This document shows positions 1,274 through 39,081 of a DNA stretch of 55,038 bases, piece by piece (the stretch's first letter is position 1; each line of letters begins with the position of its first letter). The position numbers were made by a program, and so were the translations under genes. The DNA lies in the NCBI GenBank assembly GCA_903927505.1, contig CAIYNF010000059.1, positions 1-55,038 of the forward strand, written 5' to 3'. Below the pieces are notes generated by a model. The model ran no database searches. It was not told where the DNA came from and was given only the letters and a program-made list of their open reading frames with translations. The DNA is from an uncultured Bacteroidota bacterium. GTDB lineage: Bacteria > Bacteroidota > Bacteroidia > UKL13-3.

Positions 1274-2707
1274 ATGGCATTAAGTAGATTCTGGAGTTGG
1301 ATGATTGCAATTAGTGCGCTGTACATTTTTTATTTGCTCTTTGTAAATAGAATGTATTCACTCAATGGTTTGGTAAATGGGAAACAAAATGATCCTGTTT
1401 TGGTAGCGGAGTTTCCTTTGGCAAAATTTACCCAAGATACGGCCTTTATTGCTGCCTTAAATGCTAACAAAGCCAACGGTTTGGTTCGAACCGATACTAC
1501 CTATAAATTATTAGAAAATGGCATTGTTGAACTCAATATTGGCAAGCAAGCAGCCGATGGCATTTTCCCTACCTGCAAAAATACCATCATGGATATTTGG
1601 TTGCCCCTTATAGGATACCTTACCTTTTTTTGTGGCCTCCTCAATTTGCTCAATGATTCTAATGCCATTGGAAAATTAGCAGGGGTGATGGCGCCTTTCT
1701 TTGGTAAAATTTTTCCTGAATTGCCCAAAGGACACCCGGCTTATGGCTTTATGACCATGAACTTTGCCGCTAACTTTTTGGGATTAGACAATGCCGCCAC
1801 CCCATTTGGTTTAAAGGCCATGGAGAGTATGCAAGAAACCAATACGGATAAAGACAGGGCCTCCAATAGTCAGATTATGTTCTTGTGTTTGCATGCGGCC
1901 GGACTTACTTTAATACCTACTTCTATTATTGGTTACCGCGCGGCACAGCATGCAACAAATCCTGCCGATATTATGTTGCCCACCATTATTACTTCCTTTA
2001 TTGGCACTTTAGCAGCTTTGATTTTTGTGAGTATTAAACAAAAAATAAATTTAGTGAACCTGGTTGTTGTAAGCTTGGTAGCAGGTGTTTCGGCAATTAT
2101 AGCTTTGTTGTTGGTATACATAAACAAACTAGATGGCATTGAGAAATTTCACTTTACAGGAAATTTAAGCAATGGTGTTTTGTTGTTTATTATTTTATTG
2201 GTGGTGGGCTATTCTATCTACCAAGAAAAAATATTTAAAGCCAATCAAACCAATATTTTTGATTCGTTTGTAAATGGCGCCAAAGATGGATTTACCACAG
2301 GTGTACGCGTTTTACCTTACATGGTTGCCATGTTGGTGGCCTTGAGTATTTTTAGAAACTCTACCCTCATGAATATTGTTATGAATGGAATTGGATCGAG
2401 CCTAGGTATTTTTGGCGTAAGTCAAGAAATTATCAATGCCATTCCTGTTGCCATCATGCGACCATTTAGTGCGGGTGGGGCGCGTGGTTTTATGTTAGAT
2501 GCCATGAAAACCTATGGGCCAGATAGCCTTACAGGGCAATTGTCGTGCTTGTTTCAAGGCGCAGCCGAAACCACTTTTTATGTGGTAGCTTTGTATTTTG
2601 GTTCTGTAAATGTTAAAGATGCACGCTATACTTTAAGCATCATGTTACTGGTTGATTTGGTATGTGTAATCAGTGGTATTTTTATTGCTACCATGTATTT
2701 TAAATAA
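1274..2707 (+). CDS. Nucleoside-recognition (Gate) domain membrane protein, SpmA/SpmB-like fusion
   Basis: 477-aa polytopic membrane protein with two Gate-like halves (..NFAANFLGLDNAATPFGLKAME.. and ..AIMRPFSAGGARG..). Confidence 0.65.
   Translation: MALSRFWSWMIAISALYIFYLLFVNRMYSLNGLVNGKQNDPVLVAEFPLAKFTQDTAFIAALNANKANGLVRTDTTYKLLENGIVELNIGKQAADGIFPTCKNTIMDIWLPLIGYLTFFCGLLNLLNDSNAIGKLAGVMAPFFGKIFPELPKGHPAYGFMTMNFAANFLGLDNAATPFGLKAMESMQETNTDKDRASNSQIMFLCLHAAGLTLIPTSIIGYRAAQHATNPADIMLPTIITSFIGTLAALIFVSIKQKINLVNLVVVSLVAGVSAIIALLLVYINKLDGIEKFHFTGNLSNGVLLFIILLVVGYSIYQEKIFKANQTNIFDSFVNGAKDGFTTGVRVLPYMVAMLVALSIFRNSTLMNIVMNGIGSSLGIFGVSQEIINAIPVAIMRPFSAGGARGFMLDAMKTYGPDSLTGQLSCLFQGAAETTFYVVALYFGSVNVKDARYTLSIMLLVDLVCVISGIFIATMYFK
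1481..1494. repeat. Iterated palindrome copy TTGGTTCGAACCGA
   Basis: Exact GGTTCGAACC at 1483-1492 inside CDS 1274..2707, read as L-V-R-T. Confidence 0.9.
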
Positions 2708-2718
2708 ATAATGATAGC

Positions 2719-4581: not shown

Positions 4582-5484
4582 TTAATTTTCGGGCACCAAT
4601 TGTAGGGATGCACCTATTTTTAATTGGTAGTTTGATCCCAAAATTAAACTTAAGTTGCGTGCTTCGTGCCCTGCCGGAATGCCAAATACCACGGGGTAAT
4701 TGTATTCCTTTACAGCCTCCAAAATTATTTCCTCTGCAGTTTTTCCAAATGGAACGGCATTGTCTTTCATGTCGCTCATTTGCCCAATTACAATACCTTT
4801 TAATTTGGCCAATTTACCTGCTCTTTTGAGGGCAATAAGCATGCGGTCTATATGGTAGAGGTATTCATCTAAGTCCTCTAAAAATAAAATTTTATCGCTA
4901 TAGTTTTGGTCGCTGTTCGAACCCAGAATAGCATACAATACAGATAGGTTTCCGCCAATGAGGCTACCTTTAATTTCTTGCAAATTAGTGTTAAGTGGAT
5001 GCGGCGCAAAGCTGATGGTTTGGGGCCCAGCGAACAAATTGTCTTTTAAGAAGTCTAAACTTTCTTGGTGTAATTTATCGGCTTGCCAATTGATAGGCAT
5101 GGGCGCGTGCAGGGTAGGTATCCCAAAGTTTTTCTCTATGTGCGCATGCAAAACAGTGATATCGCTATAGCCAATAATCCATTTAGGCGTTTTGCAAAAT
5201 TGCGTAAAATCTAATTGGTCTATCATGCGCACGGTACCATAGCCACCGCGTGCACAAAAGATGGCCTTAATTTTTGGATCGTCCAATAGCTTTTGAAAAG
5301 CCTGGCTGCGGTGATGGTCGCTGCCCGCATATTGGTTTTCTGCTGCGTATAAATCATCTGCCAAAACCACTTGTAAGCCCCAATTACTAAGAATGGCAAT
5401 GGCTGGCGCCATTTCTGCTGCACTAACTTTTCGGGCGGTTGCGGCAATGGCTACATAATCTCCTGCTTGCAGTTTTGCTATCAT
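4582..5484 (-). CDS. LD-carboxypeptidase (peptidase S66 family)
   Basis: Ser nucleophile context IIGYSDITVLH and C-terminal ..GIPAGHE.. The stop abuts the stop of the convergent TPR gene with zero spacer. Confidence 0.8.
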   Translation of the reverse strand: MIAKLQAGDYVAIAATARKVSAAEMAPAIAILSNWGLQVVLADDLYAAENQYAGSDHHRSQAFQKLLDDPKIKAIFCARGGYGTVRMIDQLDFTQFCKTPKWIIGYSDITVLHAHIEKNFGIPTLHAPMPINWQADKLHQESLDFLKDNLFAGPQTISFAPHPLNTNLQEIKGSLIGGNLSVLYAILGSNSDQNYSDKILFLEDLDEYLYHIDRMLIALKRAGKLAKLKGIVIGQMSDMKDNAVPFGKTAEEIILEAVKEYNYPVVFGIPAGHEARNLSLILGSNYQLKIGASLQLVPEN

Positions 5485-9015: not shown

Positions 9016-11007
9016 GTGAGCACACAACATAAAAATGGCCACGGCCACCTCGACTCTCTTACCATTGGAGGCCTGGTAATCGCTCTTGGAATCATATACG
9101 GCGATATTGGAACTTCTCCTTTGTACGTATTAAAAGCCATTATTGGCGATAAAATCATTAGTAAGGAACTCATTTACGGAGGGCTTAGTTGTATCTTTTG
9201 GACCCTTACCCTACAAACTACTGTAAAGTATGTGATCATTACCCTAAGGGCTGATAATAATGGTGAGGGTGGTATTTTTTCATTATACGCATTGGTAAAA
9301 AGGCGCAGGCCACATCTTATACTTCCTGCAATTATTGGCGGTTGTGCCCTCCTTGCCGATGGTGTAATTACTCCTCCCATTTCTGTTGCCTCTGCGGTAG
9401 AAGGTTTGCGCATTATTAGACCAGATATTCCAACTGTTCCAATTGTACTCTTTCTGATTACTTTGTTATTTTTAGTTCAGAGAGGTGGTACTAATTTGGT
9501 AGGTAAGGCATTTGGTCCAATTATGTTTATTTGGTTTGGTATGTTAGCTGTTTTAGGTATTGCCAATATACCCTTGCATGCAGATGTTTTAAATTGTTTG
9601 AATCCTTATTATGCCTATAACCTTTTGGTAAATTACCCACAAGGTTTTTGGATTTTAGGTGCCGTTTTCCTTTGTACAACTGGAGCGGAAGCATTGTACT
9701 CTGATTTGGGGCATTGCGGAAGAAAAAATATTCGTATCAGCTGGATTTTTGTAAAGTCGTGTTTGTTGTTAAACTACTTCGGCCAAGGCGCGCAAATGCT
9801 TACCATGGAAGGCCAGCCATTGGGAAAAGTAAATCCTTTTTATTCTTTAATGTCGCCAGAGTTTTTACCATACGGAATTGTAGTTGCTACTTTGGCCGCC
9901 ATTATTGCCAGTCAGGCTTTAATCAGTGGTTCATTTACATTAATTTCTGAAGCAGTACGTTTAAATGTATGGCCAAAAGTTGCTGTTAAATATCCTTCAG
10001 ATTTAAAAGGTCAGTTATATGTACCTAGCGCCAATTGGATACTTTGGGCTGGTTGTATGTGGGTAGTAATTTATTTTAGAGAATCTGCTAATATGGATGC
10101 AGCTTATGGTTTGGCCATTACCATTGCCATGCTTTCTACCACTTTATTGCTGGCCAATTATTTACTAAGTAGAAAAGTGAACCGCTTTTTTGTGGCTACA
10201 CTTTTACTTATTTATGTTACCATAGAAGGGTCATTCTTGGTAGCCAATTTAATCAAATTTGAGCACGGTGGTTGGTTCAGTTTGTTGCTCAGTAGCTTCT
10301 TCATTTTTGTAATGTGGGTTTGGTATAGAGGAAGAAAAATTAAAAACCGTTTAACAGAATTTGTGTCCCTTAAAACCTATATCCCTGTTTTAAAGCAATT
10401 GAGTGAAGACAATTCTATTTCAAAATATTCTACCCACTTGGTGTATTTAACCAGTGCCGATACTTTGTACGAAGTTGAATCAAAAGTGATGTATTCTATC
10501 TTGCAAAAACGTCCGAAACGCGCAGATATCTATTGGTTTGTGCATATTAACGTAGATGAAAAACCTTATACCATGGAGTATAAAGTAGAGCACATTGTTC
10601 CCAATGATATTATTAAAATAGATTTCAAATTGGGCTTTAGGATTGAACAAAAAATTAATTTCTATTTTAGAAAAGTGGTAGAAGAATTGGTTCGAAACAA
10701 AGAAGTGGATGTTACTTCAAGGTATACCTCTTTGCGCGAGCAAAATATTACGGGTGATTTCCGTTTTGTTGTATTAAAACGTCACCTCTCGCACGAAAAT
10801 GATTTGAGTGGTTATGAGCGTTGGATCATGGATGCTTACTTTGCCCTCGACCGCTTTAGCATTAGTGAGGAGAAGGCTTTTGGCCTAGATACCTCTTCTG
10901 TTACAGTAGAAAAAGTGCCTTTGGTGATTTCGCCAATGAAGGAATTTAAATTGAAACGCGTATACGAAGAAGCGGGTCATTACGATTTAAATGCAGAAGC
11001 TGTTTAA
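9016..11007 (+). CDS. kup: KUP/HAK/KT potassium uptake protein
   Basis: GTG start. ..ALGIIYGDIGTSPLYV.. and ..NNGEGGIFSLYAL.. are hallmark Kup motifs; 663 aa with about 12 TM segments and a cytoplasmic tail. Confidence 0.9.
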   Translation: MSTQHKNGHGHLDSLTIGGLVIALGIIYGDIGTSPLYVLKAIIGDKIISKELIYGGLSCIFWTLTLQTTVKYVIITLRADNNGEGGIFSLYALVKRRRPHLILPAIIGGCALLADGVITPPISVASAVEGLRIIRPDIPTVPIVLFLITLLFLVQRGGTNLVGKAFGPIMFIWFGMLAVLGIANIPLHADVLNCLNPYYAYNLLVNYPQGFWILGAVFLCTTGAEALYSDLGHCGRKNIRISWIFVKSCLLLNYFGQGAQMLTMEGQPLGKVNPFYSLMSPEFLPYGIVVATLAAIIASQALISGSFTLISEAVRLNVWPKVAVKYPSDLKGQLYVPSANWILWAGCMWVVIYFRESANMDAAYGLAITIAMLSTTLLLANYLLSRKVNRFFVATLLLIYVTIEGSFLVANLIKFEHGGWFSLLLSSFFIFVMWVWYRGRKIKNRLTEFVSLKTYIPVLKQLSEDNSISKYSTHLVYLTSADTLYEVESKVMYSILQKRPKRADIYWFVHINVDEKPYTMEYKVEHIVPNDIIKIDFKLGFRIEQKINFYFRKVVEELVRNKEVDVTSRYTSLREQNITGDFRFVVLKRHLSHENDLSGYERWIMDAYFALDRFSISEEKAFGLDTSSVTVEKVPLVISPMKEFKLKRVYEEAGHYDLNAEAV

Positions 11008-11038: not shown

Positions 11039-11833
11039 TTATTTAATTTTTAATACGTAATAACAAGTTGTTGTTACAAAATCTCTGATCCAAGGGAGTG
11101 CGCTAATAAAGGCAAATTGTTTTCTTGGCTTAGCCCCAAACTTGTATTTATAGCTTGGGTTAATTAAGTAAAACTCTCTTTGGGCAATGCTAAATCCAGC
11201 AGCCTTGGTAATGCGTTCGAACCTATTGATGCTAATTTGGGTTTCTTTTACTTCAAGGGTATCAATAATTCTACCTTCAATTTCGCCAAAAGCTTTCATA
11301 ATGCCTCTGTAAATAGGTGTTGGCAAAATATGGAAGTAAGGTAATTTTTCTAAAAACTTGCTGTCTAAACTTTGTTGGTGACCGCCATAAGGCATCAACC
11401 AAGGTGGAAAGGCAAAGAAAATAACCCCGTTTGGTTTCAAGAATTTGATAATATGTTTTACAAACTGTGCTTGTCCATGGATATGTTCAATGGTATCTTT
11501 CAATAATATGATATCATATTTTTCTGGCAAGTCGGCATCTGGGTTAATATCATAAACGTTCTTAGCAATAATTTCGGCCGAACCATTTGCGATTTCTTCT
11601 TTTAAGAACTCTTTGGCAATGGCACTGGCATGGTCTAATAATTCAATACCGGTTACCTTGCAACCTGCATTGGTAAATGCTTTACAAACACCGCCATAGC
11701 CGCTTCCTACTTCTAAAAAGCGCATGCCTTTTTCAATTTTCTTTTCGCGTTCAATAAATGGAATAATAAATTCCACTGTGGTGTCAAATTGTTGTTGAAA
11801 ATACCTGCTGTGGTTGCCTTGTAATTCTATCAT
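11039..11833 (-). CDS. Class I SAM-dependent methyltransferase
   Basis: SAM-binding motif I FLEVGSGYGGVCKAF and post-I ..VTGIE..; 264 aa. Confidence 0.7.
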   Translation of the reverse strand: MIELQGNHSRYFQQQFDTTVEFIIPFIEREKKIEKGMRFLEVGSGYGGVCKAFTNAGCKVTGIELLDHASAIAKEFLKEEIANGSAEIIAKNVYDINPDADLPEKYDIILLKDTIEHIHGQAQFVKHIIKFLKPNGVIFFAFPPWLMPYGGHQQSLDSKFLEKLPYFHILPTPIYRGIMKAFGEIEGRIIDTLEVKETQISINRFERITKAAGFSIAQREFYLINPSYKYKFGAKPRKQFAFISALPWIRDFVTTTCYYVLKIK

Positions 11834-12474: not shown

Positions 12475-13080
12475 TTAATTCGAAGTGTTTAATTTAAGAA
12501 ATAGCATTTTCTTTTTCTCGGCATGATTTTCAATATACTTATTTATATGCTTTAAAGTTTTTTTCGAAAAAATGCCTAGAGATTTTTCCCATAGAACTAT
12601 AAAAATATAATCTGAATTTTCAATTCTACGGTTCAAGTTAATTCTTTGGTCTGAGGTTAAATTGATTAAGGACAAATCATTTTCCAGCTTTAAACTATTA
12701 TTGCAATACCTACTTTTAAAGGTAACAAGTGAATCAGGAGGAGAGGTTAATGGAAAGAAATGTTCAATTTTACCGAAACAAACCTCCCATCCTGAAACCA
12801 AATTTCCTAAATTGTCGTAAACTCTTACTTGAACTGGTGAAATGCTTTCCACCGTTGGGATTGAATCCAACTTGAATTTGTCAAAATTCAAAGAGTCGTA
12901 ATAGGTATGGTTAATTTTAAATACATCCTCATTTACTTGAATATTATTTTTCTTTAGGTAAATTAATTGCTCAGAAATACTTTCACTTTTAGGTTTCGTA
13001 ATTCCAAATAGAATATAATATGGAATAGCACAACTTGAAATGAAAATTAGTAAAAGAAAGCCTAGACTAGCCTTTCTCAT
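12475..13080 (-). CDS. Hypothetical lipoprotein
   Basis: Signal/lipobox MRKASLGFLLLIFISSC. AT-rich, with no recognisable motif. It starts 2 nt after the guaB stop. Confidence 0.45.
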   Translation of the reverse strand: MRKASLGFLLLIFISSCAIPYYILFGITKPKSESISEQLIYLKKNNIQVNEDVFKINHTYYDSLNFDKFKLDSIPTVESISPVQVRVYDNLGNLVSGWEVCFGKIEHFFPLTSPPDSLVTFKSRYCNNSLKLENDLSLINLTSDQRINLNRRIENSDYIFIVLWEKSLGIFSKKTLKHINKYIENHAEKKKMLFLKLNTSN

Positions 13081-13082
13081 AA

Positions 13083-14558
13083 TTAATTCCTGCTATAGTT
13101 TGGCGCTTCTTTGGTAATGGTAATATCATGGGCATGGCTCTCTTTAGAACCTGCGCTGGTTATTTTTATGAACTTACCATTTTCTTGCAATTCTTCCACC
13201 GTTTTGGCGCCGCAATAACCCATACCTGCGCGCAAGCCTCCCACAAATTGGTATACTACTTCTTTTAGCAATCCTTTGAAGGGCACAATACCAACAATTC
13301 CTTCTGGAACCAATTTGGCAATTTCGTCTTCGGCATCTTGGAAATAACGGTCTTTGCTGCCTTCTTTCATGGCCTCAATAGAACCCATACCACGGTACGA
13401 TTTAAACTTACGTCCTTCGTAGATAATAGTTTCCCCTGGACTTTCTTCCACACCGGCAAAAATAGAACCACTCATTACGGTGCTGGCACCTGCGGCAAGA
13501 GCTTTTACTAAATCGCCACTGTAACGGATACCACCATCTGCAATTACTGGAACGCCGCTGCCCTTAATGGCTTTGGCTGCTTCATATACGGCGGTTAATT
13601 GTGGTACACCAATACCTGCAATAATACGGGTAGTACAAATTGAACCTGGTCCAACACCTACTTTAACGGCATCTACGCCCATATCTACCAATGCCCTTGC
13701 GGCATCGCCCGTTGCAATATTACCGGCAATAATATCAATACCTGTAAAGGCTTGTCTGAGGCGTTTTACCTCGTTCATAACACCTCTTGAATGTCCGTGA
13801 GCTGTATCAATAATAACTACATCTACACCTGCTTTAACCAATGCCGTAATACGTGCTTCGGTTTCTGCCGCTACACCTACTGCCGCGCCAACTATTAATC
13901 TGCCGTGTTGGTCTTTGCAAGCCATAGGATGGTCTTTAATTTTAAGGATGTCTTTGTAGGTAATCAATCCTTTTAACTTGCCATCTTTATCTATTACAGG
14001 AAGTTTTTCAATTTTGTATTCTTGTAAAATACTTTCGGCCATTTTTAAATCAGTACCTTCTGGAGCCGTAACCAAATTGTCTTTGGTCATTATTTCGGTC
14101 ACTGATCTGTTTAAATCTTTTTCAAAACGTAAATCGCGGTTGGTTAAAATTCCTACCAATTTGCCATTGTCGTTTACAATTGGGATGCCACCAATTTTAT
14201 TTTCACTCATAATGCGGTGTGCATCTTTTAAAGTGGCACCATCATGAAGTGTAAGTGGGTCCAAAATCATTCCGCTTTCACTTCTTTTAACCCTGCGCAC
14301 TTCATCGGCTTGGCGGTCTATGCTCATGTTTTTATGCAAAATACCAACGCCTCCTTGTTGCGCCAAAGCAATGGCCAACTTAGATTCTGTAACGGTATCC
14401 ATAGCAGCAGACAACATAGGAATGTTGATGCGGATATTTCGTGATAATTGAGTGGAAGTAATTACTTCTCTAGGAAGCACTTCGGAATAAGCTGGTAAAA
14501 GCAATACGTCGTCGTATGTTAAACCTTCACCGAAAAATTTTTTGTTGTCTTGGAACAT
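13083..14558 (-). CDS. guaB: IMP dehydrogenase
   Basis: Catalytic loop [12 protein letters not shown], a CBS pair (..[15 protein letters not shown]..) and GGIRYSGD. Confidence 0.95.
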
Positions 14559-14756: not shown

Positions 14757-15248
14757 ATGGAAATTGTGAAACGTGAATCGCTTATTCAGCAATATGCTAG
14801 CCCATCGGAGTTGGTTCGAACCGACCAAGAATTACTGGAAGCAGCGAGAGGGGTAATGGAAAGTGCGTATGCGCCTTATTCACGCTTTTTAGTAGGATGT
14901 GCCTTGCGTTTACAAAACGGTGTCATCATAAAAGGGAGCAACCAAGAAAACATGGCCTTTCCGAGTGGTTTATGCGCCGAAAGGGTGGCCATATTTTATG
15001 CCGGAGCCAATTATCCGGATGTGCCAATAATAGAAATGGCCATTACTGCCCGGGCAATGGATTATGAATTAAAAGACCCCATTACTTGCTGTGGTGCCTG
15101 TTTGCAAAGTTTATCGGAATATGAATTGCGCTTTAAACAAACCATCAGAACAATATTGCAGGGGCATAATGGTCCGGTTTGGGTGGCAGAGGCAGGTATC
15201 AAAACCTTTTTGCCCTTTCAGTTTTATGTGCAAGAACTAAAAAAGTAA
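14757..15248 (+). CDS. cdd: Cytidine deaminase
   Basis: Zn ligand motifs CAERVAIF and CCGACLQ. The tracked ORF starts at TTG 14751; ATG 14757 is more likely. Confidence 0.8.
   Translation: MEIVKRESLIQQYASPSELVRTDQELLEAARGVMESAYAPYSRFLVGCALRLQNGVIIKGSNQENMAFPSGLCAERVAIFYAGANYPDVPIIEMAITARAMDYELKDPITCCGACLQSLSEYELRFKQTIRTILQGHNGPVWVAEAGIKTFLPFQFYVQELKK
14811..14824. repeat. Iterated palindrome copy TTGGTTCGAACCGA
   Basis: Exact GGTTCGAACC at 14813-14822 inside cdd, read as L-V-R-T. The 14-mer is identical to the copy at 1481. Confidence 0.9.
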
Positions 15249-15251
15249 GTC

Positions 15252-16853
15252 ATGCTGGTAAAAGGTCAATTAGTAGATATTGCAAACAAGAATATTTTTC
15301 CTGCGGCTGTTCACATAGAAAATGGAATTATTCAATCAATAGAAGAACTGGCAGAGGCCCCGCAAAGGTTTATAATGCCAGGCTTTATAGATGCGCATGT
15401 GCATATTGAAAGTTCGCTCATGGCGCCTTCGCAATTTGCAAGGATGGCGCTAACACATGGCACCATTGCCAGTATCAGCGACCCACATGAAATAGCCAAT
15501 GTGCTTGGTTTGAAAGGCGTTGAATTTATGATTGAAAATGGAAATACGGTTCCGTTTTATTTCAATTTTGGGGCACCCTCTTGTGTACCAGCCACCACTT
15601 TTGAAACGGCTGGCGCCACTTTAAATGCGCAGGAAGTTGCTGCCTTATTAGAAAATCCAAACATTCTATACCTTACAGAAATGATGAATTTTCCGGGCGT
15701 AATTTATGACGATCCAGAAGTTCATGAGAAAATAAAAGCGGCCCATAGATTGGGAAAACCCATTGATGGCCATGCACCTGGACTTAGTGGTGAAGCGTTG
15801 CGTAAATATGTGGCTGCAGGAATAAGTACCGACCATGAATGTTTTACCCTTGAAGAGGCCTTGGAGAAGTTGAAATTGGGTATGAAAATTTTGATCCGTG
15901 AAGGAAGTGCCGCTAGAAATTTTGAAACCCTAATTCCATTGATGGATTTGCATTTCGCAAACCTCATGTTTTGTAGCGACGACAAACACCCAGATTCTTT
16001 ATTGGCAGGACATATCAATCAATTGGTGGCAAGGGCTGTGGCAAAGGGCAATGATTTGTTTAAAGTTTTACAAGTGGCCTGTCTCAACCCAATAGAACAT
16101 TACCAAATGAAACATGGTGCCTTGCAAGTGGGCGATGCCGCAGACTTTATTGTGGTAGAAGATTTGGTAAATTTTAAAGTAAGCGAAACTTTTATCAAAG
16201 GAAACAAAGTAGCCGAAAATAGAAATTGCTTGTTTGAAAGTGAAGCCTTTGAATGCATCAATAATTTTACGGCCGAACCAATAATTGCAAGTGATTTGGC
16301 TTACAGCCCCAATGCGCAAGAGCCTGTAATTGTTTGTTTGGATGGACAATTAATTACCGATAAAATTTTTGTTGCACCGCATGAAATTGGCTGCGAAAAT
16401 GATATTTTAAAACTGGTGGTTTTAAACCGCTACCAAAACAGCAAACCTGCTATTGCCTTTATCAAAAATTTTGGCCTAAAAACGGGTGCCATTGCCGGTT
16501 CTGTTGCACATGACAGTCATAATATTATTGCAGTAGGGACCAACGACGAACAAATTTGTGCAGCCATTAATCAGGTTATTTATAATAAAGGAGCCTTGGT
16601 GGCTTGCAACGAAAAAGAAAGCCATGTTATTCCTTTGCCTTTAGCGGGTTTAATGAGCAACCAAGAGGCGTGGCAGCTTGCAAAAGATTATATTGCTTTG
16701 GATCAGTTTAGTAAAAAAGAGCTTGGTTCGACCCTAAAAGCGCCTTTTATGAGTTTGTCTTTTATGGCTTTATTGGTTATTCCACACCTGAAATTGAGCG
16801 ATAAAGGCTTGTTTGATGGCGATACCTTTTCTTTTGTGCATCAAATTTCCTAA
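15252..16853 (+). CDS. ade: Adenine deaminase (amidohydrolase family)
   Basis: Metal motif [13 protein letters not shown]; 533 aa. It starts 3 nt after the cdd stop. Confidence 0.85.
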
Positions 16854-17009: not shown

Positions 17010-20000
17010 ATGTTGCCTAACCAATTACTTCTTCAGAAACTTGATGCGTTTATCAGGAAATATTATAAGAATCTCCTCTTAAAAGGCAGTATCATTTTTT
17101 TGGGATTATTTGTTGCTGTGTTTTTGCTTATTTCTTTGTTGGAATATTTTGGAAGGTATACCAGCGGCGTGCGAGAAATATTATTTTTTAGCTTGTTGTT
17201 TTTGTCCCTTGTTTTGTTGGTAAAGTTTGTAATTATTCCGCTAGCGCATCTATTAAAAATTGGCAAACAAATTTCACATGAACAGGCTGCAAGCATTATA
17301 GGAAAGCACTTTAGCGGCATTTCAGATAAATTAACCAATACCTTGCAATTGTTAAAAGAAGTTGGTTCGAACCAAGACTTGTTGCTAGCGGCCATTGCGC
17401 AAAAATCTGAAAATCTTTCGCCCATTCCGTTTACTGCAGCAGTAGATTACAAGGCAAATTTAAAATATGCGCGTTGGGCAATTGTTCCAGTTGTCTTTTT
17501 ATTGCTGTTGTTAATTGTATCGCCAAGTTTGGTGAGCGATGGTGCCACACGCGTGTTTCAATATAAAACAGTATTTAAAGTTCCGGCGCCATTTAATTTT
17601 CAAATAGAAAACAAAGCGCTAAAGGCAAATCAGTACCAAGATTTTGAGTTAAAAGTAAATGTAAGTGGAAAGGAAATTCCCAATGAAGTTTTTATTCATT
17701 ACAATAAGCAAACCTTGCATTTAGAAAAAATGGATGCCACGCATTTTTCGTTTGTTTTTAGAAATGTACAAAACAGTTTTCCTTTTTATTTAGAGGCCTT
17801 GGGTTTTGAAGATGCAGAACAAGTTTTGGAGGTAAAAGCAAAACCTGTGATGTTAAACTATTCTGTTAGCTTACAATTTCCCAGTTATTTGCATCAAAAG
17901 GAGGAGCTAATTGTTAATCCTGGTGATATATCTATTCCGGCTGGAACTACTGTAAAATGGCAGTTTTTGAGCAAGCAAACTGATGAAATTTTGCTTCAAT
18001 TTAACCAATTATTGGCGCATGCCAATTCAAAAGATTTTGCTCATTTTACTTATAGCAGAAAATTCTTTTTAGCAGATTCATATACCATTAAATTAGGAAA
18101 GGAAAAGGAGTTAAATGGTGATTCATTGCATTTTCATATTGAGGTGATTCCAGATGCTTTTCCAGCTATACAAATGGAAGAACAAAAAGATACCCTTAGT
18201 GGAAAGTTCATTTATTTTGGTGGTGAAGCTTCAGACGATCATGGATTGAGTAAACTTAGTTTTAATTACCGCTTTTTAAAATCGAGTGTCAAACAAAAAA
18301 CAGACAAAGGATTGCAATCGCAAAATTTGCCAATTGCTTTGGATAAAAATTTAAATATCAACCATGTTTTTAATTTGTATGAAATAGACTTTGCCCAAGG
18401 TGATGAATTGGAATACTATTTTGAAATTTGGGACAATGATGGGGTGCATGGGCCAAAAAGCACGAGAAGCAAAGTATTTGCTGTAAAAGCGCCAGACAAA
18501 GCCCAAATAAAGGAAGACGCAGCATCTAACAGCAAAGCTTTAGAAGAAAAAATGGAGGCCACCCTCAAGGAATCAAAAGATTTGGCAAAGGAGTTAAAAG
18601 AGATTCAGAAAAAGCTTAAAACGCAACAACCACTTACTTGGGAAGAAAAGAAAAAGTTAGAAAACATTACGCAACGCCAGAAAGATTTGGCGCAAAAAAT
18701 GGAAGAACTTCAAAAAGATTTTAAAGTTAAAAATCAAAAAGAACAATCTTTCAAAGAAGAAGACCAACGCATTTTAGAAAAGCAAAAAGAATTGCAAAAA
18801 ATGTATGAGGAATTGCTTACCGACGACATGAAAAAGTTGATGAAGCAATTGGAAGATATGATGAAGGTGCAAAACAAAGACCTCATTAAAAAGGAACTCG
18901 ATAAGATGGAAATGAACAACAAAGATGTGGAGAAGGAACTCGACAGAATGTTGGAAATGTATAAGAATTTGGAAGTGGAAAAGAAGATGGAGGAAGTGAA
19001 GAAAAATTTAGATGATTTAGCCCAAAAACAAAAGGACCTTGCCAAAGAAACGGAAGATAAATCTAGCAATAAGGAAGCGCTTAAACAGAAGCAGGACGAG
19101 CTAAGTAAGGATTTTAAAGACCTGCAAAAAGACTTGCAAGATTTAGCTAAAAAGAACCAAGAATTGGAAACGCCAAAAGAGTTGGCGGATACCAAAGAAC
19201 AAGAAAAAAAGATTGCAGATAAAATGCAAAACAGCAGTGAGGAATTGCAAAAAGGAAATAACAAGAAAAGTTCCAAAGAACAGCAGGAAGCTGCTGACGA
19301 AATGGAGCAAATGAGTCAGAAAATGCAAGACCAACAAGAAAAAGAAGAGGAAGAAAAGGCGGAGGTAGATGAAAAGGCTTTGCGTGAAATTTTAGAGAAC
19401 TTGATTCAGCTGAGTAAAGACCAAGAAAAATTGATGACACAAATGCAAAGTATCAATGGATACAATCCGCAATTTGTGAAATTGGCACAAGAGCAAAAGG
19501 TATTGAAAGACAATGCCAAAATGATTGAAGATAGCCTTTTGGCTTTGAGTAAAAATGTTCCCGAAATTAAGGCTTTTGTAAACAGAGAAGTTACCAAAAT
19601 GAACAATCATTTGGAAAATGCCAATACCAATTATTCTATCCGAAATACGCAAGAAATAAGGGTTCAACAGCAATATGCCATGACCCGCATGAATAACTTG
19701 GGTGTGATGTTGAGCGATGCATTGCAGCAATTGCAGCAGCAAATGCAAGAGAAAAAACAAGGTAAAAGCAAAGGCAATAAAGGTAAACCACAAAAGAAGC
19801 CTGGTGCAGGAAAATCTAGCATGAGTCAGTTAAAGAAAATGCAAGAGGAAATGAACAAGCAAATGCGCGAAGGGATGAATAAAAATGGTACGGGCGAAAA
19901 AGGAAAATCTGGCAGCGAACAATTTGCACGTATGTCTGCGCAACAAATGGCCATTAGGCAACAAATGCAAAAAATGCTGAGCCAAATGGATGCTTTGGAG

Positions 20001-20499: not shown

Positions 20500-20523
20500 A
20501 TGGGTAATTTTTTAATTACCCAT
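20500..20523. terminator. Perfect hairpin between the convergent DUF4175-like and toxin genes
   Basis: ATGGGTAATT-TTTT-AATTACCCAT is a 10-bp perfect stem. It overlaps the toxin stop codon (20516-20518). Confidence 0.4.
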
Positions 20524-20770: not shown

Positions 20771-20774
20771 TTTT

Positions 20775-20978
20775 TTATTTCCGCTTAGCTTCAATCATCT
20801 TAAATGCTTCTTCTATAGGGAATGAAACCTCGTTTGATTTTTTTGCTTCATCATAAAGCTTAATATCTTCAAGCTCCTCTAGCTCCTCAATAATTGCTTC
20901 GAAATCTCTCATAGGAAGCACTACAGATATTTTTTTACCTGCCTTATTTGTAATATATTTTGGATTTACTGTGAGCAT
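20775..20978 (-). CDS. Cognate antitoxin, 67 aa
   Basis: Small acidic protein immediately upstream of the RelE-like gene (..ISVVLPMRDFEAIIEELEELEDIKLYDEAK..). Confidence 0.6.
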   Translation of the reverse strand: MLTVNPKYITNKAGKKISVVLPMRDFEAIIEELEELEDIKLYDEAKKSNEVSFPIEEAFKMIEAKRK

Positions 20979-26146: not shown

Positions 26147-26536
26147 ATGAAAAATAATTTATTACTTCTAAGTTTTGTCTTAGCACTTTTTGCAGCTTGT
26201 ACCAAAACAGATACAGGAAACAGCAACAACAATGGAAATACCATCGTAACCATTGACAGCTCTGAGTTTAATGGAAGGTTGTATGTAGAAACTTACGATT
26301 ATCTATTAGGCACAAAAATTTCTGGTGCCGATGTGTTTTTATATACCAATTATGAAGATATTCAAAGAGGCATTTATTTGTTTTATCAAAAGGGAAATAC
26401 CGCTGGAGAGGCAGATTTTGGGTACCTCTTACAAGGCAATTATTATTTGGTTTCCAAAACAATTTTAAAAGCAGATACCAGCTTGGTGCAAGTGCTTAGC
26501 AAGCGCACTGTTCATAGAAATGTGTATTTAAAATGA
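26147..26536 (+). CDS. Hypothetical lipoprotein
   Basis: Lipobox MKNNLLLLSFVLALFAAC. Its stop overlaps the next start (ATGA). Confidence 0.5.
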   Translation: MKNNLLLLSFVLALFAACTKTDTGNSNNNGNTIVTIDSSEFNGRLYVETYDYLLGTKISGADVFLYTNYEDIQRGIYLFYQKGNTAGEADFGYLLQGNYYLVSKTILKADTSLVQVLSKRTVHRNVYLK

Positions 26537-27042
26537 GCACAGAACCCATAGAAAATAAAATAGCCAATGCAGGGTTAATAACCCTCAACCTGGAAGATTA
26601 TTTTGATACTGCCGACAGGGTTTTATTTGATATTAAACCTTGGTTGTTTAGGGAGCTTATTTTAAAAGAAAAAGATTTTAAGGAGTTTGTGAAGGCGCAT
26701 GATTGGTTGCAATACAGCGGAAAAATTGTGAGTTTTTATTGCAGCGCAGATGCCATTGTGCCCGTATGGGCTTACATGCTATTAGGAGTTGCCGCACAGC
26801 CATTTGCCAAGCGTTATTTTTTCGGTTCGAACCATGAAACAGAAAGCATTTTGTTTCAAGAAGCATTGGCCAAAATAGATTTTACAGCCTACCAAGACCA
26901 ACGAATTATTGTGAAAGGTTGTGGCGAAATACCTATTCCTACGAGTGCTTACCTTGAAATTACTTCCAAACTTTTGCCTTATGCTAAGAGCATTATGTAC
27001 GGCGAAGCTTGCAGCAATGTGCCTATTTTTAAACGAAAATAA
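26533..27042 (+). CDS. Conserved hypothetical protein (DUF2480-like)
   Basis: 169 aa. ..LITLNLEDYF..IKPWLFRELILKEKDFKEF.. resembles the Bacteroidota DUF2480 family (from memory). Confidence 0.55.
   Translation: MSTEPIENKIANAGLITLNLEDYFDTADRVLFDIKPWLFRELILKEKDFKEFVKAHDWLQYSGKIVSFYCSADAIVPVWAYMLLGVAAQPFAKRYFFGSNHETESILFQEALAKIDFTAYQDQRIIVKGCGEIPIPTSAYLEITSKLLPYAKSIMYGEACSNVPIFKRK
26822..26835. repeat. Iterated palindrome copy TCGGTTCGAACCAT
   Basis: Exact GGTTCGAACC at 26824-26833 inside CDS 26533..27042, read as G-S-N. Confidence 0.9.
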
Positions 27043-30990: not shown

Positions 30991-32227
30991 ATGCAATTAG
31001 AGAAATTAATTAAAAAATACGAAGACAAACAACCTGAAATTGTATTTGAATGGAAAGACACGGAAACAGAAGCGGAAGGTTGGATCGTAATAAATTCTTT
31101 GCGTGGTGGTGCTGCAGGTGGCGGTACACGTATGCGCAAAGGATTAAACAAGCATGAGGTTACTTCTTTGGCTAAAACCATGGAAATAAAATTTACAGTG
31201 GCTGGTCCTGCCATTGGTGGTGCAAAATCTGGTATTAATTTTGATCCGGCTGATCCTAGAAAAAAAGGTGTTTTGGAGCGCTGGTACAAAGCGGTATATC
31301 CAATTCTTAAAAACTATTATGGAACTGGTGGCGATTTAAACGTAGATGAAATACATGAGGTAATTCCAATTACTGAAAAGTTGGGTTTATTGCATCCGCA
31401 AGAGGGGGGTGGTGAATGGCCATTTTCAGGTGGATGAAAACCAAAAACACTTACGCATTGATAATCTAAGAATAGGTGTTTCTAAGGTATTAAATGATGA
31501 GCGTTTTACGCCAGAAGTAGCGCGCAATTATTTAGTGGCCGATATGATTACAGGTTTTGGCGTTGCCGAAGCGGTTCGTCATTATTACAGCATTTGGGGT
31601 GGAAATGTTAATTTTAAACGTGCCATTATTCAAGGCTGGGGTAATGTAGGTGCAGCAGCAGCGTATTACTTAAGTTTATATGGTGTAATTATTGTTGGAA
31701 TTATTGACCGCAATGGCGGTGTATTAAAGCCTACAGGCTTTACCAAGGAAGAAATAAAAGACATGTTTTTGAGCAAGCAAGGAAATACTTTGGTGCATCC
31801 AGACATGATGTCGTATGAAGAAATTAATGAGAAAATTTGGGAGGTAGGAGCAGAAATTTTTGTACCTGCTGCTGCTTCAAGATTGGTTACCCAAGACAAT
31901 ATTGATAAAATGCGCGCCAACGATTTAGAAGTAATTAGTTGTGGTGCCAATGTGCCGTTTGCAGATCAAGAAATTTTCTTAGGACCCATTGCAAATTATA
32001 CAGATGACCATGTAGCCATTATTCCAGATTATATTGCCAATTGTGGCATGGCACGTGTGTTTGCTTATTGCATGAGCAATGATGAAGTAGAATTAACAGA
32101 CGAAGCGATTTTTAAAGATACTTCAAAAACCATTTGGCAAGGACTAATGCGTTTGCATCAGTTTAATCCGAAGCACAAAGGTTTATTGAAAAAAGGCTTA
32201 GAAATGGCCTTGGTTAATTTGGTTTAA
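30991..32227 (+). pseudogene. Glu/Leu/Phe/Val dehydrogenase family gene split by a +1 frameshift in a G6 run
   Basis: ORFs 30991..31437 and 31409..32227 are the N- and C-terminal parts of one dehydrogenase (GGAAGGGTRM.., ..AIGGAKSGI.., Rossmann IQGWGNVGAAAA). Removing one G from 31404-31409 restores ..HPQEGVVNGHFQ.. and a protein of about 411 aa. Confidence 0.8.
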
Positions 32228-35317: not shown

Positions 35318-36040
35318 ATGATTTTAAGAAGCGAAAATCTTGTGAAGCGTTATAAAAAGCGCACCGTGGTAAATAATGTATCTATAGAGGTACACCAAGG
35401 AGAATGTGTTGGTTTGCTTGGGCCAAATGGCGCAGGAAAAACTACTACCTTTTACATGACGGTTGGCCTTATTAAACCAGATGAAGGTGAGGTATATTTA
35501 AATGAGGAGAAAATAACCGATTTGCCTATGTATAAAAGGGCACAAAAAGGATTGGGTTATTTGGCACAAGAAGCTTCAATTTTTAGAACACTTAGCGTAG
35601 AAGACAATATCAAATCTGTATTGGAAATGACTTCCTTGAATAAGGCAGATCAAAATGAGCGTTTAGAAACGCTTATGGAAGAGTTTGGTTTGAACCGTGT
35701 GCGCAAGAGTATGGGAAATGTATTAAGCGGGGGAGAAAGGCGCAGAACGGAGATTGCAAGGGCTTTGGCCGTTAATCCTAAATTTATTTTATTGGATGAA
35801 CCATTTGCGGGTATTGATCCAATTGCGGTAGAAGATATTCAGCAAATTGTTGCCAAACTGAAACATAAAAATATTGGTATCCTAATTACAGACCACAATG
35901 TGCATGAAACATTGTCTATTGTAGACCGTGCTTATTTGTTGTTTGAAGGAAAGATTTTGAAAGGTGGTACCGCGCAAGAATTGGCCGATGATGAAATGGT
36001 AAGGAAAGTTTATTTGGGTCAAAACTTTGTGTTAAGGTAA
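35318..36040 (+). CDS. lptB: LPS export ABC transporter ATP-binding protein
   Basis: Walker [10 protein letters not shown], signature LSGGERRR and Walker B ILLDEP; 240 aa. Confidence 0.9.
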
Positions 36041-36307: not shown

Positions 36308-36341
36308 AAAAAAAGCGCTTCAAATTTGAAGCGCTTTTTTT
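36308..36341. terminator. Bidirectional intrinsic terminator
   Basis: A-run, then the perfect 22-nt palindrome AGCGCTTCAAATTTGAAGCGCT, then a T-run. It sits between convergent genes 36081..36287 and 36346..39081. Confidence 0.7.
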
Positions 36342-36345
36342 GTTG

Positions 36346-39081
36346 CTATCGGTTCGAACCAACTATTTTTACTGTTATACTTACCCTTCTTTCTTTGGAT
36401 GCTCTGATTCCAAATACGGAGAGGTCTAATTGCGCATAATCGCTTGAGATGTCTTTTGGTGCTTCTAGTTCACCCAATGAATGTTCCCAGAAAGTAATTC
36501 TATTGCTTTCTATGGCATCCCATAAAGCGCCATCGTTCCATTTTTTAAGGTAACGTGTAACAGATACTATTCTGCGACTAGAAAGCTTGTTATTGTATTC
36601 TGTTGAGGCAATTGGGCTACAATAAGCAGAAACAGAAATCTCTACTTGTACGCCTTTGTTTAATTGCTCTTGAACAATTTCTAATATTTGGTTCAAGTTG
36701 TCGTATCCACCTTCTACATTTCTAATGAAGAAAGTATCTAAACCAACTTTGCTATCTGATGAGCGTTTATAAAACTCTTCCATTTGTTTCATATAAGAAT
36801 CAAATGAATTTTGGTAGGTAAACGCTGGGCGGTATAGTTGGATTGGTCTAGGTTCGTCGTTATGGAAATAAATAACGGTATTTTCAGTTTTAAGAAGCGT
36901 GCTATTTTTAGCAATTCTTCCTGGAATTTGGTCTGCAGTTCTAACCACTATGCTCACATTGGCTTGGCCAAATTGGTCTCTGTTGCCTCTTTCCATTAAA
37001 TCATAGCTTACTTGGTAGGTTCCAGGTTCAATGCCTTTTTTAACAGTAATGACACCTGTTTTGCGGTTCAAAGTAATATTTGGGTTATCACTTTTTTCGT
37101 TTCTAATTAAGGTATTTCTTTGGGTAGCTTTTTTCCCATCAATTTTATCATTGTTGCGCACGTTAAGCAAATAACCGCCATTGGTGGTTGTAAAGCCATT
37201 ATCGTCTTTGGCTACAATTCCCGCAACAATTGGTAAGCTTGGTTTATTGTTTAAGCGCGGCTTGTAGGCACTTGCCATTGGCACAGTTTCATTGGTTTCA
37301 CCTTTGTTTTGATTTTCAGCAATAGCAACCGATCTAATTACAATAGTAACTTGAGCGGTATCGCATAAACTTGGTGCAGTAACGCTGCAAATAGCATAAT
37401 TAAATTTATACGTTCCAGCTGTAGCTCCTGCGGCTACTTTAATTTCACCATCTTTGCTATCTAAATTTAAATATCCTTCTAATGGATTACTAATAATATG
37501 AATGCTTATATCACTTTCTTTTACCAAAACACCATTTAAGGAGTCGTTTTCTAGGATACTTGAAAGTTTTATGCTGCGTTGGTTATTTTCAATGAGGTAT
37601 TGGTTATCACCTGCAAAAATAGGGTTGTGTACTAAGTAAATTTCCTTTATGAGCTTGCCATCTTTAATAATATAATCATTGTTGGTTTGGTCATAATTAA
37701 GGTATCCATCTTTGCTGGCAAAAATATGCATGGTTTTCCTTGCATCTGCTGTGTCTTTAATTACAATGTTATTGCTCCCAAATGAGGTGCTTAATTCTCC
37801 TGTATAAGTGCCGTCTTCATTTGAAAAAGACACTTTCGCTTGATCTAATTCTTCTTTTGAATTAGCGTCAAATACTTTTACAAAAAGAGATTGTTTTTCT
37901 GGCTCGCTTAAAGTAAAGTGGTAAATGTTGTCATCAAATTTATTGGAGAATCGGTTGGAAGAAAAATAGCCTTCTTTTTTGTTCTTAAACATCACGCCAA
38001 AATCGTCGTAAATAGAGTTAAATGGTTCGTTCAACAAATACCTGTTTCCATTGCTAAACAAAACAATATCTAATCCACCTGTGGTTTCAATATGGTTACT
38101 TGCATACATTAATTCTCCATCTAGGGTAATGCTTGGGAAAACCTCATCGTATTCGGAATTAACGTCTTCTCCTAAATTAATAGGAGGGGTCCATTCACTG
38201 CCATTCCAATTTGTTTTGTATAAATCGAACCCACCGCTACCGCCGGGCATATCTGAAGAGAAGTAAAGTGTTTTATCAGCTTCATTGTAAAAGGGATGTT
38301 GCGCTGAGAAACCCGGTTTGCAGAAATTAACCAATCTAGCTGGCGACCAATTTCCACGCTCATTTCTAATAAAATAAACCAATGAAAGATTTTGTATGCT
38401 CTTGCTGTTTTCATGGGTATAATTGCGCGACAATACTATTAAGTTGGTGTCTTGAGATATGGCAATAGGACCATCATGTTTTTTAGAATTAATGCTTTTA
38501 GGCAAATAGCTTGGATAGGGAATACGTGTGCCTTTTTCAGTAAATGGATAAATATCTAAATAAGGTTGTTTGTTGTATACATCACCAAAGTTTTTGTTGT
38601 TACTGCTGGTTGTTCTAGAGGTAGTAACAAACAATAATTCTTTCCAATAAAATGCTGCAAAATCTTCATTCGCCGAGTTGCCTTGAAAGGTGTCAATCAC
38701 AGTATAGAGGAAGTAATTATTTTTAAAGTAATTGGTCTTTTTGTAGTAAGGCGATTTTTCACGCATCATGGTAGAAGCATACACATAATTTCTACGTGCA
38801 TTGGCTGTTTGAATGATGCCACTTTTATCGGCAATCTTATAATAATACAAAGCTTGCGGATATTTTCCTTGCAAGTATAAGGCCTCTGCCAATTGCAATA
38901 CCATGGTGTCGTTGAGCTCATTGGAATGGCTCATGAGAAACTTTTCTGCACGCTCATAGTCAAAATAGTAGGCGTATTTAATTGCCTTGTCTACTTGTGC
39001 TTGTGCTTGGTTGAAGCGCATGAAAAGTAGGCATCCCAAGATCAACAAATGGAGATGTTTGTTAAACGTATATTTTTTCAT
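36346..39081 (-). CDS. OmpA-family outer-membrane/peptidoglycan-associated protein with TPR, TolB-like propeller region and two adhesin-type modules
   Basis: 911 aa with signal peptide and TPR-like N-terminus. PD40/TolB-like segments follow (..LYFSSDMPGGSGGFDLYK..). Two roughly 95-aa modules (aa 489-583 and 619-713) are homologous to the adhesin repeat. The tail is OmpA-like (..VSAYCSPIASTEYNNKLSSRRIVSVTRYL..). Confidence 0.8.
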   Translation of the reverse strand: MKKYTFNKHLHLLILGCLLFMRFNQAQAQVDKAIKYAYYFDYERAEKFLMSHSNELNDTMVLQLAEALYLQGKYPQALYYYKIADKSGIIQTANARRNYVYASTMMREKSPYYKKTNYFKNNYFLYTVIDTFQGNSANEDFAAFYWKELLFVTTSRTTSSNNKNFGDVYNKQPYLDIYPFTEKGTRIPYPSYLPKSINSKKHDGPIAISQDTNLIVLSRNYTHENSKSIQNLSLVYFIRNERGNWSPARLVNFCKPGFSAQHPFYNEADKTLYFSSDMPGGSGGFDLYKTNWNGSEWTPPINLGEDVNSEYDEVFPSITLDGELMYASNHIETTGGLDIVLFSNGNRYLLNEPFNSIYDDFGVMFKNKKEGYFSSNRFSNKFDDNIYHFTLSEPEKQSLFVKVFDANSKEELDQAKVSFSNEDGTYTGELSTSFGSNNIVIKDTADARKTMHIFASKDGYLNYDQTNNDYIIKDGKLIKEIYLVHNPIFAGDNQYLIENNQRSIKLSSILENDSLNGVLVKESDISIHIISNPLEGYLNLDSKDGEIKVAAGATAGTYKFNYAICSVTAPSLCDTAQVTIVIRSVAIAENQNKGETNETVPMASAYKPRLNNKPSLPIVAGIVAKDDNGFTTTNGGYLLNVRNNDKIDGKKATQRNTLIRNEKSDNPNITLNRKTGVITVKKGIEPGTYQVSYDLMERGNRDQFGQANVSIVVRTADQIPGRIAKNSTLLKTENTVIYFHNDEPRPIQLYRPAFTYQNSFDSYMKQMEEFYKRSSDSKVGLDTFFIRNVEGGYDNLNQILEIVQEQLNKGVQVEISVSAYCSPIASTEYNNKLSSRRIVSVTRYLKKWNDGALWDAIESNRITFWEHSLGELEAPKDISSDYAQLDLSVFGIRASKERRVSITVKIVGSNR
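36349..36362. repeat. Iterated palindrome copy TCGGTTCGAACCAA (reverse complement TTGGTTCGAACCGA)
   Basis: Exact GGTTCGAACC at 36351-36360, covering the last codons (G-S-N-R-stop) of the OmpA-family gene. Confidence 0.9.

Follow-up and report, generated by a model that had tools for sequence, protein, structure and literature searches.

A highly abundant palindromic word in a shallow clade of uncultured freshwater Bacteroidota

The highly iterated palindrome HIP1 (GCGATCGC) of cyanobacteria, the DNA uptake sequences (DUS) of Neisseriaceae and the uptake signal sequences (USS) of Pasteurellaceae show with particular clarity that drive or selection can act on bacterial genomes at the DNA level, and the function of HIP1 is debated after three decades. 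As these systems are ancient and phylum- or family-wide, the machinery that causes them is hard to isolate. HIP1 is present at 300-2700 copies per Mb (PMC4390886), and its sites are more conserved between species than control words (PMC5861425). Natural transformation increases more than 100-fold with methylated HIP1 (bioRxiv 10.1101/2024.09.10.611283), and HIP1 abundance co-varies with DNA-uptake genes (bioRxiv 10.64898/2026.06.24.733823). Here we describe a palindromic word, the 10-mer GGTTCGAACC with its conserved flanks, found in a 55,038-bp stretch of DNA (contig CAIYNF010000059.1, assembly GCA_903927505.1, hereafter the window) from an uncultured bacterium of the phylum Bacteroidota, and compare it with the systems named above.

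The window contains five exact copies of GGTTCGAACC, starting at positions 1483, 14813, 17364, 26824 and 36351, which is where a preliminary description made from the sequence of the window had placed them. Shuffled sequences preserving dinucleotide composition contained 0.01 exact copies on average, with none of the 100 shuffles reaching five, and Markov models of orders 1-4 gave an expectation of 0.008-0.08, i.e. an observed/expected (O/E) ratio of about 60-600. Order-5 and maximal-order Markov models were discarded as uninformative at 55 kb: they absorb the signal, because in so short a sequence the word itself supplies most occurrences of the 6- to 9-mers of which it is composed. Copies with one mismatch number eight against 0.72 expected from the shuffles and those with two mismatches 15 against about 9.6, so that the enrichment is graded with the distance from the exact word. 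Six of the one-mismatch copies (starting at 4914, 10689, 11214, 16725, 40985 and 49462) had been listed correctly before, while the other two, at 35687 and 40920, both GGTTTGAACC, had been missed. The hexamer TTCGAA as such is at chance level in the window (12 occurrences versus 11.45 expected), and a recount left unchanged the earlier figure of eight out of these 12 lying in a context with no more than one mismatch to GGTTCGAACC.

For a codon-aware null, synonymous codons were permuted 1000 times within each of 42 coding segments covering 92% of the window, the gene coordinates having been taken from the gene calls on the 67.8-kb source contig (lake metagenome-assembled genome (MAG), ERZ1426833) and verified by translation. 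The mean was 0.145 exact copies, which corresponds to an O/E of about 35 and not to a ratio near 1, and no permutation reached five exact copies, eight one-mismatch copies or seven copies of GTTCGAAC. This null is conservative, since the rare codons contributed by the word itself are recycled in it. The codons used by the word are indeed rare in the window (CGA represents 5% of Arg and TCG 8% of Ser codons). Despite that, two of the four x-V-R-T peptides and three of the four G-S-N-[LPHQR] peptides, i.e. five of the eight word-compatible peptides in the window, are spelled with the word. All 13 exact and one-mismatch copies are located within coding sequences, in three reading phases and in at least ten unrelated genes. 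The peptides read previously (L-V-R-T twice, G-S-N three times and R-F-E in the near-copy at 11214) are correct, and the earlier conclusions that the pattern goes beyond chance and that a shared peptide does not explain it stand against the shuffled, Markov (orders 1-4) and codon-preserving nulls and in view of the unrelated genes, the three phases and the rare codons.

When the 11 independent exact sites of the window and the related loci were aligned, the conservation was seen to extend into the flanks: all 11 sites have T at position -2, and 10 of them have A at +2, while a pyrimidine at -1 and a purine at +1 are each present in 10 of 11. The A/T preference is weaker at positions +/-3 and there is no similarity further out, the copies having nothing in common beyond about 16 bp. 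Given the conserved T-Y...R-A flanks, the unit is the 14-bp palindrome TYGGTTCGAACCRA, which is found in the window nine times with two or fewer mismatches against 0.34 expected. The core is thus a perfect 10-bp palindrome with symmetric flanks, i.e. it lacks the asymmetry typical of DUS and USS. The asymmetry and strand skew expected of oriented words such as Chi and the FtsK-orienting polar sequences (KOPS) are absent as well, because a palindrome cannot carry orientation.

The IMPDH gene of the window (13083-14558, minus strand) was used to fetch 80 loci of GTDB species representatives with protein identities from 100% to 66%, nearly all of which are uncultured freshwater Bacteroidota. Exact copies were present in only four of them (L121, L122, L123 and L135), all with at least 94% IMPDH identity to the window. 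In the neighbor-joining tree of IMPDH the window forms one clade with L121-L130 and L135, and the 213 kb of this clade contain 13 exact copies against 0.048 expected (O/E about 270), 11 of which are independent since the two L121 copies correspond to orthologous sites of the window. Where one-mismatch forms are seen in the clade at all, their enrichment is 5- to 40-fold. The sister clade (L131-L134 and L158, 87-89% IMPDH identity) has no exact copies, and neither do 805 kb of other relatives with a GC content below 45%, where 0.23 would be expected; in both sets the one-mismatch forms are at background level. The word is therefore confined to one shallow clade of freshwater MAGs. The five copies per 55 kb of the window and 13 per 135 kb of its subclade correspond to about 90-100 exact copies per Mb, which in the loci sampled does not reach the range of HIP1, and to some 300 copies per genome of 3-4 Mb by extrapolation.

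The same proteins and sites were found in independent assemblies with 95-99.9% nucleotide identity to the window, namely GCA_040403785.1 from NCBI, ERZ18638357 from ENA and SRR27216470, SRR10607542, SRR8942266 and ERR4195117 from Logan, which excludes an assembly artifact. The 9.8 kb of new upstream sequence available for L321 added one exact copy and one near-copy, and this exact copy (L321:762) is intergenic, being located upstream of feoA. The word is thus found both between genes and, in all phases, within unrelated genes, as HIP1 is. The conspecific GCA_040403785.1 differs from the window in having about 5.5 kb of extra sequence between the sigma-70 gene and the Gate-domain gene, with three open reading frames (ORFs) of 286, 684 and 605 aa and no copy of the word.

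Two other palindromes were noticed during these counts. ATGGCCAT is over-represented in L124-L130 (17 copies versus 3.6 expected) as well as in the window, L121, L122 and L135, with a density of 1-2.6 per 10 kb in most of these sequences and about 0.5-0.9 in most other relatives, although its excess may be inflated because orthologous duplicates remained in the count. GAAGTACTTC, considered as a second palindrome enriched in the sister clade, was rejected as an ascertainment artifact because it represents one orthologous site inside IMPDH, the gene used for fetching the loci.

The alignments of the window sites with their orthologues are ungapped and differ by substitutions alone, which shows that the copies were made in place by point substitution. 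The exact copies mostly occupy short hypervariable peptide patches between conserved residues, and near-copies at constrained peptides moved toward the word by synonymous or conservative steps. The substitutions are thus silent at constrained positions of the proteins and change amino acids where a few residues can vary freely. The same placement at poorly conserved residues was described for the uptake sequences of Haemophilus and Neisseria (Findlay & Redfield, PMC2817400), and the word shares with DUS and USS this accumulation by point mutation with a preference for such residues. Sites are kept in conspecific strains and in the 93%-identical sister species (93-99.9% nucleotide identity), but at 72-77% identity most of them are not, and the relatives bear their own copies elsewhere. 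At 93-95% identity one substitution was counted in 70 motif bases, compared to about 3.9 expected from the mean identities, a difference that is not significant in this small sample. The copies are lost again over the time in which species of one genus diverge.

The copies in the window are listed in Table 1, the 14-mers being those given in the preliminary description. At the 1481 site the orthologues of the Gate-domain gene in L125 and L127 encode FEHI (TGAGCATATA) with no indel, and the copy is identical in the conspecific strains L321-L324. In the cytidine deaminase the three residues following a conserved Leu vary in every relative (GSA, SVS, AEV, SDV, SEE and others) and read VRT in the window and the sister species L121 only. 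The 17362 copy, likewise kept in L121 only, lies in a four-residue hypervariable patch with conserved flanks, and the copy at 36349 is identical in the strains L325 and L326. As for the near-copies, at 4914 the relatives have GSAS, and the change from Ala GCC to Asn AAC is a step toward the word. At 10689 all six relatives have LVKN, with Lys AAA replaced by the rare Arg codon CGA in this species only. At 11214 the R-F-E-R peptide is conserved, and the window and L122 match nine of the ten positions via synonymous changes (TTCGAA, with TTCAAA or CTCAAA in the relatives). The site orthologous to the near-copy at 16725 is an exact copy in L122 (L122:7847). The copy at 35687 may be a chance near-match, since its peptide is conserved and the outgroup has GGTTTAAACA.

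Table 1. Exact and one-mismatch copies of the word in the window, with the genes that contain them.
Class	Sequence	Position	Gene	Gene coordinates	Strand	Codons	Peptide or flanks
Exact	TTGGTTCGAACCGA	1481..1494	Gate-domain gene	1274-2707	+	70-73	L-V-R-T
Exact	TTGGTTCGAACCGA	14811..14824	Cytidine deaminase	14757-15248	+	19-22	L-V-R-T
Exact, perfect 14-bp palindrome	TTGGTTCGAACCAA	17362..17375	1109-aa gene	17010-20339	+	119-122	G-S-N-Q
Exact 10-mer	within TCGGTTCGAACCAT	26822..26835	DUF2480 gene	26533-27042	+	98-101	G-S-N-H
Exact	TCGGTTCGAACCAA (reverse complement of TTGGTTCGAACCGA)	36349..36362	911-aa gene	36346-39081	-	last four	G-S-N-R-stop
One-mismatch	TGTTCGAACC	4914..4923	LD-carboxypeptidase gene	4582-5484	-		G-S-N-S
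One-mismatch	GGTTCGAAAC	10689..10698	K+ transporter gene	9016-11007	+		L-V-R-N
One-mismatch	CGTTCGAACC	11214..11223	Class I methyltransferase gene	11039-11833	-		R-F-E-R
One-mismatch	GGTTCGACCC	16725..16734	Adenine deaminase	15252-16853	+		G-S-T-L
CpG-transition	GGTTTGAACC	35687..35696	ABC ATPase gene	35318-36040	+		G-L-N-R
CpG-transition	GGTTTGAACC	40920..40929	SprB/CHU_C adhesin gene	40065-47183	-		flanks TC..GG
One-mismatch	GGATCGAACC	40985..40994	SprB/CHU_C adhesin gene	40065-47183	-		
One-mismatch	GGCTCGAACC	49462..49471	965-aa gene	48854-51751	+		

The variants of the word are concentrated at its central dinucleotide. Among the 16 possible centers of GGTTNNAACC across the clade, only CG (13 copies) and TG/CA (11 copies versus 0.56 expected) are enriched, while the double-transition center TA, despite having the highest background expectation (0.73), was seen once. 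No G-to-A changes at the outer G/C positions were found among the clade variants. In the two basal subclades represented by L125-L130 (78 kb) there are no exact copies, although about eight would be expected at the enrichment of the window's subclade. Instead, these loci contain five copies of GGTTCAAACC or GGTTTGAACC (GGTTYRAACC with TG or CA in the center) against 0.21 expected (P=3e-6), at species-specific positions and with the same T-Y...R-A flanks. The pattern points to either a one-hit loss of the central CpG by C-to-T transition or an asymmetric dialect of the word. Under such a loss only the single-transition form would be seen, because after one hit the CpG is gone and no second hit is possible, and CpG hypermutability of this kind would be expected of 5-methylcytosine (m5C). 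A merely relaxed pyrimidine/purine preference of a symmetric binder is argued against by the pattern of the centers. The presence of the single-base form in L125-L130 and its absence from the sister clade fit a DUS-like dialect and CpG decay alike, and the global CpG O/E is equal between the clades.

Copies of the word were also found in other collections. The contig IMGVR_UViG_3300038391_000041 (L087, 37.5 kb, GC 45%) has four exact copies of GGTTCGAACC within 1.4 kb (12552-13920) of one M4-peptidase/PKD/CHU_C gene. Their flanks follow the pattern described above, and they are read in three phases (as LVRT, GSN, RFEP and LVRT). Although L087 is filed as viral, the presence of this type IX secretion CHU_C gene implies that it is host-like Bacteroidota DNA. 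The 11 kb preceding the M4-peptidase gene, which include an S24 repressor-like gene, contain no copy of the word. L087 represents a second, denser instance of the word in another lineage of the Bacteroidota.

A metagenome scan with TTGGTTCGAACCGA gave at least 120 listed matches, mostly single chance matches in contigs with a high GC content, and among the matches listed only L232, L258 and L315, which have a low GC content and extra TG/CA copies, look like the same phenomenon. Together with L374 and L436 from the viral collections, these contigs, each ascertained through one exact 14-mer, contain seven further TG/CA copies and no further exact ones. L232 (Ga0070374_10000983), a 12-kb contig with a GC content of 38%, has one exact copy and three copies of GGTTCAAACC between 4713 and 10246 and probably belongs to a genome of the TG/CA-rich kind. 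In the two viral-collection scans the word was present in about chance numbers, the multi-copy matches being an 81-nt tandem coding repeat, duplicated segments and the host-like L087. The tandem repeat, located at 2400-3600 in L105 and found in L081 and L112 too, consists of at least 11 units of 27 codons, some of them with TTGGTTCGAACCAA, and is not the dispersed word.

The genes of the window code for housekeeping and surface proteins, among them a FeoB-like Gate protein, RecQ, Kup, IMPDH, cytidine and adenine deaminases, FabF/ACP, pyruvate kinase, an SprB-type adhesin, PorP/SprF and a ParE/RelB pair. The gene annotations of the window include neither a DNA methyltransferase or restriction enzyme nor a Vsr or dnd/ssp gene. 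When the clade loci and some additional contigs were screened for m5C (PCQ.FS) and N6/N4 ([DNS]PP[YFW]) methyltransferase motifs, a single ORF with NPPY was found, in an outgroup locus. TTCGAA outside GTTCGAAC was counted five times in the window against about 12 expected, the ratio being 0.4-0.5 compared to 0.65-1.0 in the controls. This depletion is weak and ambiguous and does not clearly support the earlier remark that palindromes of the TTCGAA type are usually avoided as restriction targets.

About 5 kb upstream of window position 1 there are feoAB and a gene of the ComM/YifB type with the domains ChlI, Mg_chelatase and Mg_chelatase_C; ComM-type genes are widespread. The genes for the ParE toxin and the RelB-like antitoxin (20516-20978, minus strand) lie between the 1109-aa gene and truA and contain no copy of the palindrome. 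A frameshift at six consecutive G (about 31403-31408) divides the gene for glutamate dehydrogenase into overlapping ORFs at 30991-31437 and 31409-32227, whereas the gene call on the source contig is a single 411-aa glutamate dehydrogenase, with the coordinates of the flanking genes offset by one base. The window thus probably differs from the deposited contig by a homopolymer indel of 1 nt.

In most testable respects the word resembles HIP1 and DUS/USS, but it does not reach the density of the former and lacks the asymmetry of the latter. The parallel with HIP1 drawn in the preliminary description is borne out by its lineage-specific occurrence, its origin by substitution within and between genes and the enrichment of one-mismatch forms. 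Like HIP1 and the alternative cyanobacterial palindromes, it is a perfect palindrome that is over-represented with respect to composition-aware nulls and has a CpG-containing core, a symmetric extension, which HIP1 has in some genomes, and lineage-specific replacement variants. The differences are in the sequence itself, the phylum, the length (14 bp versus 8-10 bp), the density, the range (a genus-level clade versus a phylum) and the quick turnover of sites, compared to the between-species conservation of HIP1. With DUS and USS it shares the construction of short words by point mutation inside genes at poorly conserved residues, altered tripeptide usage, possibly single-base 'dialects' between sister lineages, and the existence of relatives without the word. 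However, DUS and USS are asymmetric, about ten times denser and have a demonstrated uptake bias and, in the case of DUS, a receptor (ComP).

The Noc-binding sites (NBS), the SlmA-binding sites (SBS), the MatP sites matS and parS are also two-fold symmetric sites of 12-16 bp in coding sequences, and are bound by dimeric proteins. A genome has tens of sites of such a set, which are limited to certain regions and conserved across families or larger groups, in contrast to the approximately 300 extrapolated sites, rapid turnover and very shallow clade in the case described here. Repetitive extragenic palindromic (REP) elements, bacterial interspersed mosaic elements (BIME) and miniature inverted-repeat transposable elements (MITE) are repeated palindromic DNA as well, but they are extragenic, longer and imperfect and spread by insertion, whereas the copies of the word are 14 bp long and made in place inside ORFs with no indels. 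In full-text literature searches GGTTCGAACC was nowhere treated as an iterated genomic word, and no HIP-like or uptake word was found for Bacteroidota, in agreement with the earlier statement that no equivalent had been described in this phylum.

It is highly probable that TYGGTTCGAACCRA is a genuine, lineage-restricted and hyper-abundant palindromic word and not a peptide repeat, a mobile element or a restriction-site effect, and the conclusion that a directional process maintains it at the level of DNA, and not of peptides, is secure. As to the mechanism, we consider, with a probability of roughly 0.4, that a clade-specific dimeric recogniser biases the uptake and/or recombination of conspecific DNA. 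A dimer is suggested because the site has two-fold symmetry over 14 bp, which would be recognized by a clade-specific homodimeric DNA-recognising component. This component would give word-bearing DNA a transmission advantage in the uptake and/or recombination of conspecific DNA, so that the word would act as a 'self tag'. DUS and USS operate in this manner, and recent experiments point in the same direction for methylated HIP1. Mutations creating or improving the word would then have a higher chance of fixation than mutations destroying it, i.e. there would be a molecular drive filtered by purifying selection on proteins. The central CpG would probably be cytosine-methylated, making TG/CA the dominant decay form and the sole form in the two basal subclades. 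A tag for uptake or recombination is favored because of the placement at tolerant residues, the costly codons, the young and narrow distribution and the possible dialect, and because the word is apparently absent from the putatively foreign DNA beside the word-rich host gene of L087. It is also favored due to the transformation evidence for methylated HIP1 and to the preference for self DNA in the same phylum, Riemerella columbina being a naturally competent member of the Bacteroidota that prefers its own DNA (PMC7965970).

Several points weigh against this mechanism. Known uptake sequences are asymmetric and about ten times denser, while the word is palindromic and occurs about once per 10 kb. 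The competence of these uncultured bacteria is only putative, and neither the window nor the clade DNA sampled (213 kb) was found to encode a recogniser, methyltransferase or competence apparatus. The TG/CA pattern may be an asymmetric dialect and not decay, and at L126:4153 the most parsimonious route leads from the reconstructed ancestor to the CA form bypassing CG. The subclades are those of a single-gene neighbor-joining tree with no support values. The relevant DNA sampled amounts to about 0.27 Mb, mostly syntenic to the window. The clade itself is represented by about 0.2 Mb, and since nearly all of that comes from one syntenic region, the genome-wide abundance is an extrapolation.

Sites of Noc, SlmA and MatP are 12-16-bp palindromes lying inside genes, and the word could likewise represent selected sites of a clade-specific nucleoid-organising or nucleoid-occlusion-type protein on this model, in which density and not position would be selected and sites could turn over. 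A 14-bp two-fold symmetric word is typical of a dimeric binder of the helix-turn-helix (HTH) type, it lies inside genes whatever the phase with graded enrichment of near-matches, and a role in chromosome structure was argued for HIP1 (Xu et al., PMC5861425). We nevertheless regard this explanation as unlikely: conservation of the sites at 72-77% identity is poor, the shallow range demands a recent and rapid build-up of hundreds of sites with amino-acid changes and rare codons, the clade DNA sampled has no candidate protein, and the extrapolated number of about 300 copies per genome is several-fold above the known Noc, SlmA and MatP site sets. Biased repair linked to methylation would make the word a by-product with no function of its own, produced either by the mismatch-repair ratchet of Elhai or by Vsr-type T:G repair together with a cytosine methyltransferase acting at TTCGAA or TCGA. 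The dominance of the CpG-to-TpG/CpA form and the lack of enrichment of the double-transition form would fit this, the two TG/CA-only subclades look like lineages in which repair was lost and methylation kept, and one-mismatch forms are enriched as in HIP1 (PMC4390886). In the ratchet as proposed, however, a site grows by a single base on either side (PMC4390886). TTCGAA is at chance overall with only an ambiguous depletion outside the motif, the CpG O/E is the same between the clades, and the methyltransferase motif scan of the clade loci was empty. The specificity, moreover, spans 14 bp, compared to 4-8 bp for Type II methyltransferase sites, and we find this origin improbable.

A connection with DNA phosphorothioation seems very improbable. 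GGTTCGAACC consists of two abutting GTTC/GAAC units and so matches the GAAC/GTTC consensus of Dnd systems (PMC6435447, PMC4507180), which could make it a preferred or protected modification site, but this is a resemblance only. No dnd/ssp genes are present among the genes of the window and the source-contig loci, and the CpG-specific variants and the conserved T/A at +/-2 would be left unexplained. To our knowledge, Dnd systems do not enrich longer palindromes. That there is no DNA-level phenomenon at all has a negligible probability. The near-copy at 35687 in the conserved G-L-N-R peptide may be a coincidence; however, the shuffled, Markov and codon-preserving nulls were all exceeded, the copies lie in three phases of unrelated genes with no indels and no similarity beyond the unit and its nearest flanks, and the sites recur in the NCBI, ENA and Logan assemblies. 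At the scale of the window, this excludes an effect of chance or of codon usage, an origin from shared peptides or paralogous domains, a miniature mobile element and an assembly artifact.

If a recogniser of the kind proposed above is indeed responsible, which we suggest tentatively, the word would represent the first system of the HIP or uptake-sequence type in a group other than cyanobacteria and Proteobacteria. As a 'self tag' of genus-level range and recent origin, it would have a methylated CpG and a dimeric recogniser biasing uptake, recombination or chromosome organization, and would be still spreading. The same kind of signal as in HIP1, DUS and USS is young here, being present in a handful of species and absent from a sister clade with about 88% IMPDH identity, with a possible intermediate or decayed state in two subclades. 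Because there are relatives without the word or with its CpG-decayed form only, the responsible gene or genes could be pinpointed by a presence/absence comparison, and this could help to clarify the purpose of HIP-type words, a question of 30 years' standing. Annotators should be aware that a process acting at the DNA level can impose local rare codons and odd amino-acid replacements in variable loops.

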